A stretch of DNA of 64,000 bases from an uncultured Thermoanaerobaculia bacterium (GCA_964423595.1 CAYRFI010000004.1:12327-76326), one strand, 5' to 3'. Numbered from the stretch's first letter, positions 49,998 through 57,386 are shown. Notes: generated by a model not told the origin, from the sequence alone. A program made the numbers and translations.

Positions 49998-51506
49998 TTA
50001 CGGCGTAACGGGACCGGCCGGGGTGACTCGGCGACCTGCGCGACGGGTGATGACGCTGCGGCTTTCGAGAGCAGCTTTGATGAGATCGCCGTCCGCCTGG
50101 GAGATCCCAGCCGACGGGATGGTGATCGTTTGGTCGTCACCCCCCATCGGCGGCAGGCCGTTCGGCTGGTTGTTGATGACGAGGACGGCCACCGCGCCGG
50201 CATTCTGAGCGTTCTTTACCTTCTGGGTGAAAAAACATGTGCCCCGATCGATGACGGCGATCCTGCCCGCAATTTCGGAGGCATTGACCAGGGATTCGCA
50301 GCCCAACGTCGGTGCTTCTGAACCGTCATCCACCACCGCCAGCTCGCCGCTGACTCCGGTCAGGTTAATCGACGGTCCGAACTCGGCGGATTGCACCGCA
50401 TAGCTTCCCTCGATATCGCTCGGCGAGTTGATGGTGAGAGTCGGCGCGTTGTCGAGAAAGGCGGGCGCCGCGTTGGTGGTCTGGGGACCGTCCCACACCA
50501 CCCGGTTGGTGTTGACCGCCGATGCCCGGCGTTGGGTGTTGGTCATCTCCGACCAGTGAAGCTGCTCGTCTTTGTCGAAAGTGAAAACTGTGTAGATGTC
50601 CGGCATCGGCGGGAGGCCGGGAAAATCAGGCGGCGAGCCGGTGGCGTCGTCGACGAAGTTGGCGAAACCCAAGCCGTGACCCATTTCATGGAGCGCCACC
50701 GAGGCAAAGGAGACCTGGCCAGTTGGCGTGTTCCCGTCCAACCCGTAGTAGTAGCGGTACCCGGGCGCCAGACAGCCTTCGTCGATCTGGCGGTTGAAGG
50801 TGACGACGAGCTCACCAGCCTCCGGAGGATAGGCGTCCTCGGTGGTGCTGAGGTTCTCGTCGGCAAGCGCTTCGGCCAGGGCGCCGTGATACCAGGTTCC
50901 CTGCCTCGGTGCGTTGGGAAAATCGAAGAACAGGAATTGAGCGCCCGCGGCAGCCAGGACCGCTCCGTCTTCGGGTTCGGGGCCGCAATCGAGCTCGTCA
51001 AAGGACGTCTCGATGTTGATCTCGACGCCGCTTCCGAGGAGGGATGCCCAGACGCCCGCGACCCACTGCATGGCGGCCAGACGCTGTCCGCCCAACGTCG
51101 TCCCACCCGGATTGTCCGGAGCTGCCGGCACGGCTGTCGGGTCATTGAAACCCTCTTCCTCGGGGTCAGTGACCCGGATGGTCATCACGGATGAACCCTG
51201 CGGCCAGCCGATGTCCAAGAAGTGCGGCAGGGTCAGGTCGACCTCGCCCAACGGCACGGTGGGAGAGTATGACGGCTCCATCAGTAGGTCCGGGGTGGCC
51301 GAGAGGTCCCAGTGGGAAATCGAGGAGCCTGCTTCCAGGGGGTCCGGAGTGTAGAGCAGCAGCTGTTCAAGGTCGTCGGTGCCCGAAAGCCTTGTGGGGT
51401 CGAGGGCCAGAGTCCCGTTGACCTCGGCCGCTCCGGCAGGGACCACCAAGACCATGGCCAACACTGGAAACAGGCACGCCAGGCGCAGCGCGATTCGCAT
51501 CGACAT
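49998..51506 (-). CDS. Secreted zinc metalloprotease (HExxH) with C-terminal PA (protease-associated) domain
   Basis: VALHEMGHGLGF. The PA-like block is AVIDRGTCFFTQKVKNAQNAGAVAVLVINN. Signal peptide MSMRIALRLACLFPVLAMVLVVPAGA. Confidence 0.7.
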   Translation of the reverse strand: MSMRIALRLACLFPVLAMVLVVPAGAAEVNGTLALDPTRLSGTDDLEQLLLYTPDPLEAGSSISHWDLSATPDLLMEPSYSPTVPLGEVDLTLPHFLDIGWPQGSSVMTIRVTDPEEEGFNDPTAVPAAPDNPGGTTLGGQRLAAMQWVAGVWASLLGSGVEINIETSFDELDCGPEPEDGAVLAAAGAQFLFFDFPNAPRQGTWYHGALAEALADENLSTTEDAYPPEAGELVVTFNRQIDEGCLAPGYRYYYGLDGNTPTGQVSFASVALHEMGHGLGFANFVDDATGSPPDFPGLPPMPDIYTVFTFDKDEQLHWSEMTNTQRRASAVNTNRVVWDGPQTTNAAPAFLDNAPTLTINSPSDIEGSYAVQSAEFGPSINLTGVSGELAVVDDGSEAPTLGCESLVNASEIAGRIAVIDRGTCFFTQKVKNAQNAGAVAVLVINNQPNGLPPMGGDDQTITIPSAGISQADGDLIKAALESRSVITRRAGRRVTPAGPVTP

Positions 51507-51510
51507 GCCC

Positions 51511-51987
51511 CTATTTGTCCCGGGGCTCTGCATCCGCCCCGGCCGACTCGTCATGCAAGAATTTCTCGGCCGCATGCGAGCTATTTGTGCAGAGGGTTTC
51601 CAAAGACCCGTCCGGTTTCATCCGGACCATAAGTACATGCTCGAAACGGCCGTCCAGAAAGACGCCCTTGCCGCCGTCTGCAAGCTCGAAGACCCGCAGG
51701 CCGTCGGTCGAGCGGGTCAACGCCTTGGTCAGCGGGGCGGACAGGACATCGGTTTCCCGAAGCGGCACGGAAATGATTTCGCCGGTTTCCGGGTCGACGA
51801 AGACCTTCATCAATTTCGTCACACCGGTTTCGGCGCTCGACGCCTTCGGCGCCTGCCGCCTGAGCTCTGGATTTTCGTCTGGAGAGGACGCGGCCACCGG
51901 CACCGCGATAGCCGCCATCACGAAGGCGACACACAGGGCCCGGATGGTGCGGGAGGCGTTCCCTCGCGCATGAGGTCTTTGGTTCAT
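51511..51987 (-). CDS. Small secreted protein of unknown function, immediately upstream of the metalloprotease
   Basis: The N-terminal hydrophobic segment ALCVAFVMAAIAVPVAA acts as a signal peptide. The stop is 4 nt before the protease start. Confidence 0.5.
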   Translation of the reverse strand: MNQRPHARGNASRTIRALCVAFVMAAIAVPVAASSPDENPELRRQAPKASSAETGVTKLMKVFVDPETGEIISVPLRETDVLSAPLTKALTRSTDGLRVFELADGGKGVFLDGRFEHVLMVRMKPDGSLETLCTNSSHAAEKFLHDESAGADAEPRDK

Positions 51988-52408
51988 GGGTTGCTCCGTT
52001 TGGGCCTCTCAGAAAGCCGCCGGTAGTCATGTCGTGGCCGGATAACCGTGTCGGCGGGGCAATAAATGCCAGTCCGCACTCTCAGCATACCTTCCCGAGG
52101 GAAAAACCGTCTCGGTGCTCACGTCAAACAACGGTCAAAGCGCCGCCGGTACTCCATGCGTGGTGCCTGCGGAGGGGCATGGCGCCGGATGAGGGGGCTG
52201 CTGAGAGCGAATTCGATCACGGCGAGAGGCAGCTGCTGTTGCCGCCTGACGAAAATCCGCCCGTTGCGGGCACCGATGGTTGGCACTATCTTGTCAGAAG
52301 GGCACACCCGGATCGGTCGTGACCGTGGGACGAATAGGCGAATTCGAGCTTGAGAGGGCCTGAGGTGGAGTGCGTCACGCCGCCGGCCGCTGAAAGTTGG
52401 GGTGAGTT

Positions 52409-53320
52409 GTGACTTTCACCCGCAGGCAGTTGCTGAGAACGGTGGGTGCCGCCTGCGCCGCCGACATTGTTCCGAGGGGCGCGGCCGCGAGCAACGGTGA
52501 GTCAACTGCCGACGACAGCGTCGGTGTGCTCGTGGACACCACCGCCTGCATCGGCTGCCGCAAGTGCGAGTGGGCGTGCAATCGCGCCAACCAGCTTCCG
52601 GTCCAGCCCCTCGAGACCTTCGAGGATGTCCTGGTGTTCGCGGACGATCGCCGCCCTGACGCCGCTCACTATACGGTGGTGAACCGCTTTCCCGGAGCGA
52701 CCCCGGCGGCGCCTCCGGTCCACGTCAAGGTCCAATGTATGCATTGCAACGAACCGGCGTGCGCTTCGGCGTGCCTGGTGAGCGCGCTGGTGAAGCAGGC
52801 GAACGGGGCGGTGACCTACGACCCATGGCGCTGCATGGGTTGCCGCTACTGCATGGTCGTGTGCCCTTTCGGCGTGCCTGCCTACGAGTACCACAACCCC
52901 ACCACACCCCGGGTTCGCAAGTGCAGCTTCTGCCACGAGCGGGTCGTCAACGAGGGACGGCTGCCGGCCTGTGTGGAGATCTGCCCTCCCCAATGTCTCA
53001 TCTTCGGCCAACGCGCCGAACTCCTCCGGCTCGCCCATCGGCGGATACGCAGGGAACCGGACCGCTATGTGGATCACGTGTACGGTGAAACCGAGGCCGG
53101 TGGCACCTCCTGGCTTTACCTGGCGAGCACCCAGTTCGCCGAGCTCGGGTTTCCCACCCTCTCGCCGCAGTCCCCGTCGCATCTCACCGAGTCCCTCCAG
53201 CACGGCCTCTTCAGGAATTTCATCCCGCCGCTCTCCTTGTTTGCGGTGCTCACAGCGGTCATGGCCCTCACTCACCCTGACGCGACCCGGGACGGATCCC
53301 GCGACGGGGAGCAACGTTGA
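52409..53320 (+). CDS. Tat-exported 4x[4Fe-4S] ferredoxin subunit (HybA/NrfC/DsrO/HmcB-type) with C-terminal TM anchor
   Basis: Twin-arginine TRRQLL. Cys clusters are CIGCRKCEWAC, CMHCNEPACASAC, CMGCRYCMVVCP and CSFCHERV...LPACVEICP. C-terminal hydrophobic IPPLSLFAVLTAVMAL. GTG start. Confidence 0.8.
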   Translation: MTFTRRQLLRTVGAACAADIVPRGAAASNGESTADDSVGVLVDTTACIGCRKCEWACNRANQLPVQPLETFEDVLVFADDRRPDAAHYTVVNRFPGATPAAPPVHVKVQCMHCNEPACASACLVSALVKQANGAVTYDPWRCMGCRYCMVVCPFGVPAYEYHNPTTPRVRKCSFCHERVVNEGRLPACVEICPPQCLIFGQRAELLRLAHRRIRREPDRYVDHVYGETEAGGTSWLYLASTQFAELGFPTLSPQSPSHLTESLQHGLFRNFIPPLSLFAVLTAVMALTHPDATRDGSRDGEQR

Positions 53321-54585
53321 CCCACCTTGAAGCCGCCCCTCTCGACCGACGACTGAACACGCCGGGGGTGCGCGTGCTCCTGCTGCTGATGGCCGTGGGT
53401 GCGGGGTTCGCCGTTGTTCGCTTCCGGTCGGGGCTCGGGGCGGTCACCCACCTCGACGACCGCTTCCCGTGGGGACTGTGGATCGCTGTCGATGTCGCCA
53501 CCGGCGTGGCCCTCGCCGCCGGCGGCTTCACGACCGCTGCCGTCACCCACATCTTCCACCGTCATCGCTACGAATCGTTGACCCGTCCCGCCCTGCTCAC
53601 CGCCGCGCTCGGATACACCTTCGTGGCACTGGGGATCCTCATGGACCTGGGCCGCTACTACAACATCTGGCACCCGGCGCTTCCCTCCATGTGGTCGGGC
53701 CACTCGGCGCTCTTCGAAGTGGCCATGTGCGTCATGGCGTATCTCACCGTGCTCTATATAGAGCTCGTGCCGATCGTGGTCGAACGCTTTGGCGGACGGG
53801 TGCGTCTGCCCGGCCCCCTGGCCCTTCTCGACCGCCCAGTTGAAGTCTTCCTTTACCTGTTCGATAAGACCCTCGGCCGGGTGATGTTCGTATTCATCAT
53901 CCTCGGTGTCGTTCTTTCGTGTCTGCACCAATCGTCCCTCGGCACCCTGATGCTGCTGGCACCATCGAAGATGAACCCTCTGTGGTGGACGCCGATCCTA
54001 CCCCTCTTGTTCCTGCTTTCGGCGGTGGCGGTGGGTTTCTCCATGGTCATCTTCGAGTCCCTGGTGTCCGCGCGGGCGTTCGGCCGGCGGCCCGAGTTGA
54101 ACGTGCTCGGCTCTCTCGCGCGAATCGTGCCGGTGGTCCTGCTGGTGTATCTCGGGTGCAAGGTCGCGGACCTGGCCATCCGTGGGGTGGTCCCACGCCT
54201 CCTTGACGGGAGCACCGCCTCGACCATCTTCCTGCTCGAGGTCGGCGCCGGCGTGGTGGTTCCGCTCGTCATGCTGTTCTCGGATCGGGTGCGGCGCAGC
54301 CCGAGGCTGCTGCTCACCGCCGCCACTCTGACGGTCCTCGGCGTCGCCGGCAACCGGATCGACGTCTTCCTGGTGGCCTACACGCCACCCTTCGCCACCC
54401 ACCGTTATGTTCCGAGTATCGGCGAGGTCGCCGTCACGGTTGGCCTCATCGCCGGGCTGGTGCTGCTCTACCGCGTGCTGGTGACCGTGCTCCCGATTCT
54501 GCCCGCCGGGGAGGACGCCGAGCCTGCCGATCCAGACATGCATCGCCCCAGAGGCTGGCTGGCGGCCAGCTGGGGCAAGTGGTGA
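53317..54585 (+). CDS. NrfD/PsrC/HybB-family integral membrane quinone-interacting subunit
   Basis: About 10 TM segments. The N-terminus ...FAVVRFRSGLGAVTHLDDRFPWGLWIAVDVATGVALAAGGF is typical of the HybB/DsrP/HmcC family. The TTG start overlaps the upstream stop (TTGA). Confidence 0.75.
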   Translation: MTHLEAAPLDRRLNTPGVRVLLLLMAVGAGFAVVRFRSGLGAVTHLDDRFPWGLWIAVDVATGVALAAGGFTTAAVTHIFHRHRYESLTRPALLTAALGYTFVALGILMDLGRYYNIWHPALPSMWSGHSALFEVAMCVMAYLTVLYIELVPIVVERFGGRVRLPGPLALLDRPVEVFLYLFDKTLGRVMFVFIILGVVLSCLHQSSLGTLMLLAPSKMNPLWWTPILPLLFLLSAVAVGFSMVIFESLVSARAFGRRPELNVLGSLARIVPVVLLVYLGCKVADLAIRGVVPRLLDGSTASTIFLLEVGAGVVVPLVMLFSDRVRRSPRLLLTAATLTVLGVAGNRIDVFLVAYTPPFATHRYVPSIGEVAVTVGLIAGLVLLYRVLVTVLPILPAGEDAEPADPDMHRPRGWLAASWGKW

Positions 54586-55709
54586 TGAGGTACCGGGCCG
54601 CGCTCGGTCTCACGGTGAGTGTGCTGCTCGGGCTGGCGGCGGCTTCGTTTCCGGCCCATAGCCGGGCAGCGAACGCCGATGCGCCGGACTGCTTGGAGTG
54701 CCACACCTGCCCGGAACCTCTCCCAGATCGGCCGTGCCTGCAGCCGTGCCCGCGCCACGCCCGGGCCGCCGTCCTTTCTCCGGACCTCGGCCCCGACGTA
54801 GTGGTGCTCGGCGAGCTGGAGGACCTCTACGTGCCGGTGCGGTTCGACCACAGGACCCACGCCGTGATGGCGGGCATGTCCAACGGCTGCGACATCTGTC
54901 ACCACTACACGCCGCCTGACTTGCCGCACCCCGACTGCAAGGGCTGCCATCCCACCGATGTCGCGCATGAAGACCTCGCGCAACCGGGCCTCAGGGGCGC
55001 GTATCACCGGCGGTGCCTGAGCTGCCACAGTGAATGGGACCACGAAACCGCGTGTGGGATCTGCCACGAAAAACGCAAAGGAGGTGGGCTCGGCGGGACC
55101 GCCACGACCGTGTGCGACCACAGCCTCTACCGGCCGATGATTCTCGAGGAGCTGATCATCTTCACCACCGCCTTCGCCCCCGGTGACACGGTGCCGTTCC
55201 ACCATCGCAATCACAGCCGGCGCTACGAGCGCGACTGCACCGAGTGCCACCGCGAGCAGAGCTGTAACCGCTGCCACATCCAGGACGGCGGCGAACTCCA
55301 TCCCATGGGTCGGCCCGACGAAGTGAATCTCCACGAAACGTGTTTCGTCTGCCACCAAAGCCAGCGGTGCCGTGATTGCCACGGCCGCGACCCAGCGGAC
55401 CTCTTCTCTCACTCCGACACCGGTTGGCCTCTCGGGGTCTACCACGCCGATCTCGACTGCCGAACCTGCCACGGGCGCGGCGCCGGCATTCACAAGCTCG
55501 ACGCCCGCTGCGAGGCCTGCCACCAGGGGGGATTCCCGACCGCGAACTTCGACCACCGCGTCACCGGCGTCATCCTTGACGAGGTCCATCGGCAGGCGGA
55601 CTGCAGCGACTGCCACGCGGGCGGCTGGTCGGCCCTACCACAGTGCGACGCCTGCCACGACGACGGTCGGACCTACGACCGGAACCGGGGCTTTGTCGCG
55701 TCCTCATGA
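54585..55709 (+). CDS. Periplasmic multiheme cytochrome c, 13 CxxCH motifs (cytochrome c3-type repeats)
   Basis: I counted CLECH, CDICH, CKGCH, CLSCH, CGICH, CTECH, CNRCH, CFVCH, CRDCH, CRTCH, CEACH, CSDCH and CDACH. c3-like distal-His contexts are VRFDHRTH, VPFHHRNH and ANFDHRV. A signal peptide is present. The ATG overlaps the upstream stop (TGATG); alternative GTG 54579. Confidence 0.8.
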   Translation: MRYRAALGLTVSVLLGLAAASFPAHSRAANADAPDCLECHTCPEPLPDRPCLQPCPRHARAAVLSPDLGPDVVVLGELEDLYVPVRFDHRTHAVMAGMSNGCDICHHYTPPDLPHPDCKGCHPTDVAHEDLAQPGLRGAYHRRCLSCHSEWDHETACGICHEKRKGGGLGGTATTVCDHSLYRPMILEELIIFTTAFAPGDTVPFHHRNHSRRYERDCTECHREQSCNRCHIQDGGELHPMGRPDEVNLHETCFVCHQSQRCRDCHGRDPADLFSHSDTGWPLGVYHADLDCRTCHGRGAGIHKLDARCEACHQGGFPTANFDHRVTGVILDEVHRQADCSDCHAGGWSALPQCDACHDDGRTYDRNRGFVASS

Positions 55710-55831
55710 TTCGCCCCGCTGCGGCCGGATCCCAGGCTGAAAAGGCAGGGCGGGTGGTGGACAGCTTACGGCCACCCGCTGATTCCGACGTGAGCTCGCG
55801 TGCACAGCACGCGAGCAACCCTAGCGACGAA

Positions 55832-55914
55832 TGCCGGAGGAGGGGATCGAACCCTCACGGGATTACTCCCAGGGGATTTTAAGTCCCCAGCGTCTGCCAT
55901 TCCGCCACTCCGGC
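55832..55914 (-). tRNA. tRNA-Leu (anticodon UAA), 83 nt, long variable arm, CCA not encoded
   Basis: Hand-folded GCCGGAG-TG-GCG-GAATGGCAGA-CGC-T-GGGGA-CTTAAAA-TCCCC-TGGGAGTAATCCCGT-GAGGG-TTCGATC-CCCTC-CTCCGGC-A. All four stems pair, and the T-loop TTCGATC is present. Confidence 0.9.
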
Positions 55915-55936
55915 AGGAGACACAGCCATCATAGCC

Positions 55937-55971
55937 GGAAATCTGAATTCGGAATTCGGAATTCGGAGTGC
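55937..55971. repeat. Tandem heptamer array GGAAATC TGAATTC GGAATTC GGAATTC GGAGTGC
   Basis: Read directly. It lies between tRNA-Leu and the FAD-oxidoreductase start. The unit differs by 1 nt from the arrays at 57385-57557. Confidence 0.8.
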
Positions 55972-56003
55972 CGCCCACCCACCCGTGTGCTACAACTTCC
56001 TCG

Positions 56004-57386
56004 ATGACTGCGCAGAACGCAGAAGTCGTGATCTGCGGAGCCGGGATCGCGGGGATCTCGACAGCCTGGCGGCTGGCGGTGAAGCACGGAACTAGAAACG
56101 TCGTCCTGGTGGACTCGCGGCCGCCGATGACGCTGACCTCGGACAAGTCGACCGAGGCCTACCGCAACTGGTGGCCGGGGCCCGATGACGCGATGGTGCG
56201 GCTGATGAACCGCTCGATCGATCTCCTCGAAGAGATGGCGGAAGCGAGCGACAACCGTTTTTTGATGAACCGGCGTGGCTATCTCTACGCCACCGCCGAT
56301 CCGGAGCGAGCCGACGCGATGCACGCTGCGGGAGTACTCGCCTCCAGCTACGGAGCTGGCCCGTTGCGGGTCCACTCCGGAGGGGCGGGCGGCCCCGATT
56401 ACCTGCCAACACCGGCGGAGGGCTGGAAGGATCAACCCGACGGAGCGGATCTGATTCTCGGTGAGGGTTTACTCCGAAAGACTTTCCCCTTCCTCTCTCA
56501 GGAAACAGTGGCGGTGCTGCACGCCCGCCGCTGCGGCTGGTTCTCGGGCCAGCAGCTCGGCATGCTGCAACTCGAAGAAGCTCGGGCGGCCGGCGTCGAG
56601 GTGATCGAGGGCCGCGTCGAGTGGATTGAAACTACCGGCGGCCGCGTGTCGTCGGTCCAGATCGGCACCGGCAACGAAATCGTCTCCGTTGCTACGCCCC
56701 AGTTCGTGGTCGCCGCCGGGCCGATGCTACGAGAGGTCGGGGCCCTGCTCGGCCTCGAGCTGCCGGTCTTCTCCGAGCTTCACCTCAAGATGTCTCTCGA
56801 GGACCAGCTCGGCGTGGTGCCCCGTGACGCGCCTCTCTTGATCTGGGAGGATCCGCAGCGCCTCGGTTGGAGTGACGAGGAACGCGAGTTCGTGGCCGAG
56901 CTGGCGGACGGTGAGCTGTTGCTCGGCGAGATGCCTCCGGGAGTCCACGCGCGAATCGAGGGCGGGAGGGAAAGCCGCTACCTGCTCATCCTGTGGCCCT
57001 ACCATTTGGATCCGGTTGCGGAGAACTTCCCCCTGCCGATACCGGATCACTACGCCGAGATCTGTGTGCGCGGAATCTCGACCATGATCCCCGGGCTCGG
57101 CGCCTATGTGGAGCGGATGCCCAAACCGTGGATCGACGGCGGCTACTACACCAAGACGAAGGACAACCGCCCGCTCGCCGGTCCGCTGCCGATCGACGGG
57201 GCATTCGTTCATGGTGCGTTGTCGGGTTACGGGCTGATGGCCTCGGCGGCGACGGCGGAGATGGTCGCGCTGCACATCACCCAGGGGCAGTTGCCGGACT
57301 ACGCCGGTGCGTTCCTCCCAGCGCGGTTCGATGATCCGGAGTACCTCGCCTTGATCGAGGGATGGGATGACACCACACAGTTGTGA
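56004..57386 (+). CDS. FAD-dependent oxidoreductase (DAO/glycine-oxidase-like family)
   Basis: VVICGAGIAGISTAWRL (GxGxxG dinucleotide fold). The C-terminus is GALSGYGLMASAATAEMVA. The start is trimmed to ATG 56004. Confidence 0.7.
   Translation: MTAQNAEVVICGAGIAGISTAWRLAVKHGTRNVVLVDSRPPMTLTSDKSTEAYRNWWPGPDDAMVRLMNRSIDLLEEMAEASDNRFLMNRRGYLYATADPERADAMHAAGVLASSYGAGPLRVHSGGAGGPDYLPTPAEGWKDQPDGADLILGEGLLRKTFPFLSQETVAVLHARRCGWFSGQQLGMLQLEEARAAGVEVIEGRVEWIETTGGRVSSVQIGTGNEIVSVATPQFVVAAGPMLREVGALLGLELPVFSELHLKMSLEDQLGVVPRDAPLLIWEDPQRLGWSDEEREFVAELADGELLLGEMPPGVHARIEGGRESRYLLILWPYHLDPVAENFPLPIPDHYAEICVRGISTMIPGLGAYVERMPKPWIDGGYYTKTKDNRPLAGPLPIDGAFVHGALSGYGLMASAATAEMVALHITQGQLPDYAGAFLPARFDDPEYLALIEGWDDTTQL

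Follow-up and report, generated by a model that had tools for sequence, protein, structure and literature searches.

What a quinone-reactive membrane module does when the partner encoded next to it is a large multiheme cytochrome is the question raised by three genes at positions 52409-55709 of a 64,000-nucleotide stretch of DNA (the whole of which is called the window here) from an uncultured Thermoanaerobaculia bacterium (GCA_964423595.1, CAYRFI010000004.1:12327-76326). The trio encodes an iron-sulfur (FeS) protein, an NrfD-type membrane subunit and a cytochrome with 13 CxxCH motifs. We propose, with a probability of roughly 70%, that it is a self-contained, reversible, periplasm-facing multiheme cytochrome c:quinone oxidoreductase. 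Co-inheritance of the trio extends across phyla, and fusions between its genes occur in some organisms. Judged by its sequences, the trio is of the HybAB/HmcBC/Nhc/Qrc kind and outside every characterised family; each equivalog model tested scored below its cut-off. Membership of a characterised complex family, which the preliminary description of the locus had named as a refutation, was not found.

The cytochrome gene (54585-55709, plus strand, 374 amino acids) encodes a protein with a Sec-type signal peptide and an ANA/D cleavage site, which matches the Pfam families Cytochrom_CIII and Cytochrome_C7. All 13 CxxCH motifs were invariant in a first alignment of 15 sequences. In an alignment of 107 homologues with 37-89% identity, in which the window protein is the reference row, 38 of the 39 CxxCH positions never vary, and the last one, a Cys, is kept in 106 sequences. 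Exactly 13 motifs are present in 105 of these homologues and in 88 of 89 copies taken from the loci described below, a conservation far beyond chance; because the count is fixed down to 37% identity, it speaks for strong functional constraint. The number of hemes given in the preliminary description therefore holds, the motifs being both canonical and conserved. No CxxCK or other atypical heme motif was detected in the cytochrome.

It had also been stated that this heme number fits neither Nhc (9) nor Hmc (16), and the difference extends to the architecture. The cytochrome reached 42 bits with the NCBIfam model for HmcA (NF045713, cut-off 400) and 32.4 bits with that for the nine-heme cytochrome NhcA (NF045784, cut-off 640). 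Residues ~60-166 resemble the C-terminal c3 domain of HmcA (2e84, 1gws) and NhcA (19hc, 1ofw), with an E-value of 6e-10 by sequence and a fold match of about 120 columns at 31% identity and a TM-score (template modelling score) of 0.23 on the query length. The NhcA structures 19hc and 1ofw are the best structural matches of the cytochrome, and the rest of the protein resembles no solved protein by sequence or fold. One c3-like tetraheme domain is thus in common with Nhc and Hmc, and nothing else.

By analogy with c3, the cytochrome can be read as a 1+4+4+4 arrangement, in which one N-terminal heme would be followed by three tetraheme c3/c7-like units. This arrangement and the ligand assignments were obtained by comparing the sequence register with the c3 ligand pattern, not from coordinates. 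The conserved distal His residues number four in the first tetraheme unit, three in the second and four in the third, so that the 13 hemes share only 11 invariant His residues and Met95, invariant in 107/107 sequences, as potential distal ligands. Met95 may be the ligand of heme 1, and H239 and M241, the candidate sixth ligands of heme 7, occur in 78-79 of the 107 homologues. Beside heme 1 and outside the heme motifs lie Cys42, Cys51 and Cys55 (~54708-54752, numbered from ATG 54585), each conserved in 104-106 of the 107 sequences, which give rise to an N-terminal motif CxxCH-x-C-x8-C-x3-C. Residues 41-60 were modelled with a predicted local distance difference test score (pLDDT) of 83-93. Candidate roles for the three cysteines are a metal site, ligation of a heme, or a disulfide with one thiol left free.

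A search for this architecture in other genomes, together with its gene neighbours, revealed a widespread family rather than a single oddity. A species-level scan with one genome per species identified relatives of the cytochrome in at least 524 genomes; all locus counts given here refer to the best 80 of these, each of them a metagenome-assembled genome (MAG). A protein search yielded 294 relatives, whose most specific annotation is 'cytochrome c3 family protein', and a library of representatives at 50% identity contained 118 clusters at E <= 1e-30. The labels of the best 80 include Acidobacteriota, Eisenbacteria, Krumholzibacteriia, Latescibacterota, Fibrobacteraceae, Gemmatimonadota, Ignavibacteria, Zixibacteria, KSB1, Omnitrophota, Phycisphaerae, Thermodesulfobacteriota and others. 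Wherever the flank suffices, the FeS and NrfD genes adjoin the cytochrome gene. The order FeS-NrfD-cytochrome (B-C-A) that had been described for the window was confirmed there and is the usual one in the 80 loci, with A-B-C found in four. We define the family by a cytochrome of ~370-390 amino acids with 13 CxxCH motifs in register, the motif CxxCHxC-x8-C-x3-C, Met95, and adjoining HybA/HmcB-like and HybB/HmcC-like genes; the window protein fits this definition.

The same cytochrome is found on two lineages of membrane module, one HybB-like (type A) and the other close to HmcBC (type B). NrfD subunits of type A are 54-74% identical to that of the window, those of type B ~35%. Type B modules come near the Hmc cut-offs (HmcC up to 529.5 vs 550 bits, HmcB 412 vs 420 bits), and the type A NrfD shares 33% identity with E. 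coli HybB and just as much with type B. By its sequence, the window membrane module is nearer to HybAB than to HmcBC. Within each lineage, the pairwise identities of FeS protein, NrfD subunit and cytochrome are correlated (r = 0.86-0.95), and the cytochromes share 41% identity between the lineages vs 44% within them. Both trio types occur together mostly in Krumholzibacteriia MAGs, back to back in L042, L045, L046, L048 and L050 and in tandem in L066, which suggests two complexes in one cell that have the same type of cytochrome and different properties on the quinone side.

A physical complex of the three proteins is supported by gene fusions. Three protein clusters (P0149, P0177 and P0226) combine NrfD and cytochrome, with both Pfam domains present, and fusions of FeS and NrfD are common (L087 7905-10004; P0342, P0348, P0358, P0363 and P0388). 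Where NrfD and cytochrome are joined, what used to be the signal peptide would become an eleventh transmembrane helix. A number of further NrfD-cytochrome 'fusions' of ~770 amino acids among the locus open reading frames (ORFs) were rejected as artefacts of an open upstream frame, as established by the reading frame for L002 and inferred for the others.

The FeS subunit, encoded by the first gene of the trio (52409-53320, plus strand, 303 amino acids, located by ORF calling), has a twin-arginine motif, TRRQLL, for export by the twin-arginine translocation (Tat) pathway and one C-terminal hydrophobic helix (residues 271-289) as an anchor. Its 16 Cys residues are arranged in four ferredoxin-type motifs and all align with Cys of E. 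coli HybA, to which the protein is 32% identical over the full length; each of them is kept in 65-66 of 66 family members. It scored 62 bits with Pfam Fer4_11. The best NCBIfam model was HmcB (NF045715, 332.7 bits, cut-off 420), followed by HybA (NF008134, the equivalog for hydrogenase 2 (Hyd-2), 250.9 bits, below its cut-off of 263) and QrcC (49 bits, cut-off 400). The top match of a sequence search in the PDB was FdnH (1kqf_B, E 1e-31). The cysteines, the Tat motif and the top scores of HmcB and HybA, albeit below cut-off, agree with the initial naming of a HybA/HmcB-like 4x[4Fe-4S] Tat protein. Also present is the Tyr of a CRYC motif, found in 60 of 66 family members, whose equivalent in QrcC, Y113, is essential for quinone reduction (PMC13059093).

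The NrfD-type membrane subunit (53317-54585, plus strand, TTG start, 422 amino acids) matches PF03916 (NrfD) over residues 45-353 with 79.4 bits against a cut-off of 25.8. Its best NCBIfam model is the Hyd-2 equivalog HybB (NF008133, 358.1 bits, cut-off 450), ahead of HmcC (NF045714, 278.8 bits, cut-off 550) and QrcD (122.5 bits, cut-off 570), and it aligns over its whole length with E. coli HybB at 35% identity. The Pfam match and the ranking of HybB and HmcC, again below cut-off, bear out its description as a HybB/HmcC-like type. An AlphaFold2 model (pLDDT 79) has 10 long helices, and the subunit is without cofactor motifs; the helix number was taken from this model, given that a crude hydropathy count under-called helices. 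ActC of alternative complex III (ACIII) tops the list of Foldseek matches (6btm_C, 8k9e_C, 6lod_C and 6f0k_C), with TM-scores of 0.64-0.71 under either normalisation and 15-19% identity, in keeping with the double four-helix-bundle fold by which the 10-helix clade is recognised. Searches of PDB sequences with the single sequence and with a profile gave no matches, so that a close relative has not been solved. HybB/HmcC and QrcD have been placed in one 10-helix clade (PMC6303296), and the window subunit is paired with an adjacent four-cluster FeS gene, as this NrfD/PsrC clade (HybB/HmcC/QrcD/DsrP/ActC) requires.

For HybB, 25 residues have been listed as belonging to the quinone site and two half-channels (PMC8076601). 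Sixteen of these are identical in the window NrfD, and five more are conservative or protonatable substitutions. The identical residues comprise D58, D109, S129 and E133 of the quinone site, Y84, R89, Y99, Y141, E148, E155, H184, S186 and S187 of the path to the N-side, as well as K198, E291 and R329. All are kept in 47-48 of 48 type A sequences, with the exception of Y84 (42). Mutagenesis identified HybB D58 and Y99, equivalent to QrcD D70 and Y110, as required for activity, and the same applies to QrcD S138 (HybB S129) and QrcD Y150 (PMC13059093). As far as the alignment can tell, the window NrfD keeps most of the residues proposed for the quinone site and proton path, including all of those tested by mutagenesis in HybB and QrcD.

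The surroundings of the trio contribute to this assignment. Its stand-alone character, part of the preliminary description, was found in the window and in most of the 80 loci: no hydrogenase, molybdopterin subunit or HmcDEF gene is adjacent in the window or among the conserved neighbours in the 80 loci, and all-against-all clustering of ORFs did not reveal any fourth conserved gene beyond 15/80 loci. The commonest extra gene, in ~15/80 loci, encodes a CbcL-like protein in which a cytochrome b of the Ni_hydr_CYTB type is joined to a multiheme c domain. A further multiheme cytochrome lies within 3 kb of the trio in 19/80 loci, the types being CbcL-like, NapC/NirT-like, 19-heme and 42-heme. In Eisenbacteria MAGs (L004, L006, L007, L009 and L012), the gene immediately upstream of the trio encodes a cytochrome c/b fusion protein with 19 hemes, and in two MAGs cytochromes of ~1065 amino acids with 42 CxxCH motifs in Paired_CXXCH_1 repeats are encoded 0.5-6 kb from it (L029 11754-14951, L055 17027-20221). 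In these 19 loci the nearby multiheme cytochromes link the trio to a periplasmic cytochrome network, which we count in favour of a cytochrome c:quinone oxidoreductase.

In the mechanism that we envisage, the four [4Fe-4S] clusters would carry electrons between the 13 hemes and a quinone site of NrfD close to its periplasmic face, and the heme chain would then exchange electrons with a periplasmic partner encoded elsewhere. The protons of the quinone chemistry would be exchanged with the cytoplasm. Quinol oxidation toward low-potential hemes would be assisted by the proton-motive force, as proposed for reverse Hyd-2, and quinone reduction would be electrogenic, like that of Qrc (PMC6303296). 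Regarding the direction, we give slightly better than even odds to a flow from quinol to the cytochrome, which would serve a heterotroph as an electron outlet. Quinol oxidation toward periplasmic cytochromes has been proposed in genome papers on Melioribacter and MBNT15 (PMC3534657, PMC9386147), and the occasional clustering with large cytochromes fits such an outlet. That the electrons flow to metals or leave the cell is conjecture, with further multiheme cytochromes near only 19/80 trios and not near that of the window.

Several points weigh against the assignment as an oxidoreductase of this kind. Heme occupancy, cluster content and complex formation are predictions from sequence, and four path residues of HybB are changed in the window NrfD (T63V, S95A, S105G and H200N). 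Another cytochrome, a hydrogenase or a terminal reductase was not found in the 64-kb window, nor was any other ORF with two or more CxxCH motifs. A pure electron wire leaves the extra cysteines at heme 1 unexplained, along with one heme, probably heme 7, that lacks a universally conserved sixth ligand. In addition, the literature searched contained no description of, or experiments on, the 13-heme family.

The same complex would act as an electron entry if reduced periplasmic carriers fed the 13-heme cytochrome and electrons passed on through the FeS-NrfD module to menaquinone in an electrogenic reaction. The donors might be the oxidation of H2 or formate, or extracellular Fe(II), humics or a partner cell. 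Bis-His hemes of the c3-like kind typically have low potentials, which counts for this direction, and the reverse one would be partly redundant in those loci where the trio lies beside quinol dehydrogenases of the CbcL or NapC type. Moreover, the residues of the proton-uptake path are conserved, and all characterised close relatives of the membrane module reduce quinone (PMC6303296, PMC8076601). However, the same proton path serves the reverse reaction (PMC6303296), genes for c3 or for a periplasmic hydrogenase or formate dehydrogenase lie close to the trio in none of the 80 loci and are missing from the window as well, and the carriers are mostly heterotrophic members of the FCB group and Acidobacteriota instead of sulfate reducers rich in cytochrome c3. 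We therefore regard electron entry as a serious candidate that falls short of an even chance, and the direction from cytochrome to quinone, as in Hyd-2, Qrc and, by proposal, Nhc and Hmc, as tentative. A different possibility is that the cytochrome is itself catalytic, with a heme of unusual or open sixth position or the Cys-rich site at heme 1 as the active site. The trio would then be a complete terminal enzyme comparable to MccACD or NrfABCD, either a quinol:X reductase or an X:quinone oxidoreductase. The ligand shortfall at 13 hemes, notably at heme 7, and the nearly invariant Cys42, Cys51 and Cys55 would find an explanation in this way, and so would the fact that the trio needs no conserved neighbour. 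DsrJ, in which one heme has His/Cys ligation, offers a parallel. Precedents on FeS-NrfD modules are DsrJ in DsrMKJOP and MccA in MccACD (PMC8076601). Nevertheless, the cytochrome has no similarity in sequence or fold to NrfA, MccA, Otr or HAO, its structural matches are only electron-transfer c3 domains (NhcA, HmcA), the heme motifs are all canonical, and the ligands were assigned by analogy to c3. We consider a catalytic cytochrome unlikely, and it is similarly doubtful that the trio represents an unrecognised respiratory enzyme of Acidobacteriota and the FCB group for soluble sulfur, nitrogen or metal species.

Two further explanations would assign the trio to complexes that are already known. 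Since HybB is the best NCBIfam model of the membrane subunit and homologues are named as hydrogenase subunits, one could regard the module as anchoring a [NiFe] hydrogenase of the Hyd-2 type in the membrane, with the genes for HybOC at another site. Yet both HybB (358 < 450) and HybA (251 < 263) remain below their cut-offs, hydrogenase genes stand beside the trio in 0/80 loci, the type A NrfD is no closer to E. coli HybB than to the HmcC-like lineage, and the position of the partner is taken by a cytochrome that is even fused to NrfD in three clusters, so that this explanation is hardly credible. A shortened Hmc or Nhc complex serving sulfate respiration, with HmcDEF or NhcD encoded elsewhere, would be in line with HmcB as the best model of the FeS subunit, with the one domain homologous to the C-terminal domain of HmcA and NhcA, and with the type B modules near the HmcB and HmcC cut-offs. 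This is very unlikely in view of the low scores of the cytochrome with the HmcA (42 vs 400) and nine-heme (32 vs 640) models and its fixed 13 hemes; moreover, an HmcDEF-like gene is not conserved, not even in the four A-B-C loci, and the carriers belong overwhelmingly to lineages not known as sulfate reducers.

A cytochrome c:quinone oxidoreductase as proposed here would have several counterparts among characterised complexes without being identical to any of them. With HybA-HybB of E. coli Hyd-2, the trio shares a Tat-exported four-cluster FeS protein with C-terminal anchor and a 10-helix quinone subunit lacking cofactors, whereas the partner is the HybOC hydrogenase there and the 13-heme cytochrome here, and hydrogenase genes are near none of the loci. 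Hmc of Desulfovibrio (HmcABCDEF) likewise joins a multiheme c3-type cytochrome to an HmcB-like FeS protein and an HmcC-like NrfD subunit. In contrast to the trio, which is mostly arranged as B-C-A, it has a cytochrome with 16 hemes that aligns over only about 120 residues, as well as HmcD, HmcE and HmcF as a link to the cytoplasm; without these, the trio has no route to the cytoplasm. A gene-by-gene check, which covered the four A-B-C loci, did not reveal a conserved HmcDEF-like gene. The closest system in concept is NhcABCD, which combines a multiheme cytochrome in the periplasm with an NrfD subunit and a four-cluster FeS protein, lacks cytoplasmic subunits and has been proposed to be a cytochrome c3:quinone oxidoreductase (PMC8076601). 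A comparison of cytochrome and gene content shows that Nhc differs by having 9 hemes instead of 13 and by its occurrence in other phyla. A small fourth membrane gene resembling NhcD is not conserved beside the trio in the 80 loci.

The membrane module of QrcABCD belongs to the same 10-helix clade, and the residues validated there by mutagenesis are kept in the window. Qrc was shown experimentally to be electrogenic through proton uptake from the cytoplasm, and HybB/HmcC have the same proton path (PMC6303296). However, a cofactor-less molybdopterin protein resembling QrcB is absent beside the trio, and Qrc has a membrane-anchored hexaheme cytochrome, whereas the 13-heme cytochrome would be soluble or associated. 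The Geobacter Cbc4 complex (CbcSTU), like CbcL a quinol:cytochrome c oxidoreductase of the inner membrane, also consists of a cytochrome, a four-cluster FeS protein and a membrane subunit without cofactors, and was proposed to transfer quinol electrons to periplasmic cytochromes (bioRxiv 10.1101/2025.04.14.648717). Identity of the trio with Cbc4 was rejected on the grounds that CbcS is a membrane-anchored tetraheme cytochrome of the NrfH/CymA-like type (bioRxiv 10.1101/2025.04.14.648717), with no relationship to the 13-heme cytochrome. For Melioribacter roseus (PMC3534657) and MBNT15 (PMC9386147), genome-level mentions exist of FeS and NrfD genes with a multiheme cytochrome that replaces the molybdopterin subunit. 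We liken these clusters to the trio by their description; the papers are without an analysis of heme architecture or family, and a multi-omics paper on Melioribacter holds no data on the NrfCD cluster. ACIII (ActABCDEF) resembles the trio in the ActC fold and in tying quinol to periplasmic c-type hemes, but it has an ActB fusion with a molybdopterin-like domain, a second NrfD subunit (ActF) and ActA, ActD and ActE, none of which is found in the trio. Tmc, to which the module had initially been likened, has a cytochrome b in place of the NrfD subunit and is therefore a poor comparison.

Names currently attached to family members are misleading. Relatives of the membrane subunit are listed in databases as 'Ni/Fe-hydrogenase cytochrome b subunit' or 'HybB-like protein', and because of these hydrogenase names, hydrogen metabolism could be wrongly scored in reconstructions. 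The name 'DnaJ-class molecular chaperone' is given to cytochrome fragments, because their CxxC repeats match the DnaJ zinc-finger model. Soils and sediments commonly harbour the carrier lineages, whose respiratory chains have been described almost exclusively through MAG annotation. If characterised, the complex would add to them a site of coupling between the quinone pool and periplasmic cytochromes, and would provide a case for comparing one cytochrome on two diverged NrfD modules, HybB-like and HmcC-like. While a periplasm-facing multiheme cytochrome on an NrfCD-type module is known as such, the 13-heme family with its fixed register, Cys-rich N-terminal motif, two module lineages and very wide distribution appears to be new.

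Within the trio, translational coupling had been claimed from overlapping start and stop codons, and both overlaps were found. The TGA stop of the FeS gene and the TTG start of the NrfD gene overlap as TTGA (4 nucleotides, 53317-53320), and the NrfD stop overlaps the ATG at 54585 as TGATG. The cytochrome of 376 amino acids given in the preliminary description corresponds to an existing ORF (54579-55709) with a GTG start at 54579. The product is likelier to have 374 residues, and ATG 54585 is probably the true start, because the homologues align from this ATG and the 374-residue product is found in public records. Identical calls for this protein and for the upstream genes of 303 and 422 amino acids exist on three public contigs, and a record of the 376-residue version was not found among public entries. 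G-rich stretches resembling Shine-Dalgarno sequences precede all three starts; in the case of the FeS gene, GGGGTGAG lies 4 bases before the GTG start.

Upstream of the trio, a non-coding region at 52031-52408 (plus strand) is the expected site of the operon promoter and its regulation. A sigma-70-like promoter was not detected in 51500-56200, nor was a box resembling those of FNR/CRP near the operon. A tRNA-Leu(taa) gene on the minus strand (55831-55915) lies directly 3' of the cytochrome gene and ends the operon. The window neighbours, namely a DAO-family oxidoreductase, a PA-domain protease and a GH20 protein, accompany the trio in 0/80 loci, and the flanks differ even at the 89%-identical homologue. 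Because its relatives have different flanks, the trio may be mobile as a cassette.

The larger part of the window (1-48700) encodes the glycosidases GH88, GH3, two GH20, two GH5-like, GH130, a GH27-type melibiase, GH94 and a GH2 exo-glucosaminidase. Also present are a sulfatase-TPR protein, a TonB-dependent receptor of the CarboxypepD_reg type, YdjC, a PIG-L deacetylase, a GlcNAc 2-epimerase, a SIS protein and a transporter of the major facilitator superfamily. This region looks like a locus for the breakdown of an amino-sugar or chitin-type polymer, and it has no evident tie to the redox module. The setting had been described as aerobic-looking glycan catabolism, of which the glycan genes were confirmed; nothing specifically aerobic was seen.

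At some of the related loci, proteins of ~220-280 amino acids with a domain resembling the glycine-cleavage H protein (GCV_H) directly adjoin HmcBC-like FeS-NrfD modules (L054 8774-9460, L058 9274-9936, L062 3165-3944 and 7498-8331; further sites are L051 5176-6774, L070 5263-6867 and L077 4882-6677). One set of these proteins has an N-terminal hydrophobic segment and another a CxxxxxCxxC motif. Some of the adjoining modules come with a 13-heme cytochrome, and others are of a third FeS-NrfD type without a cytochrome. In the window itself, three tandem copies of GAATTCG (55945-55965) follow the tRNA-Leu gene, just before the start of the DAO-family gene.

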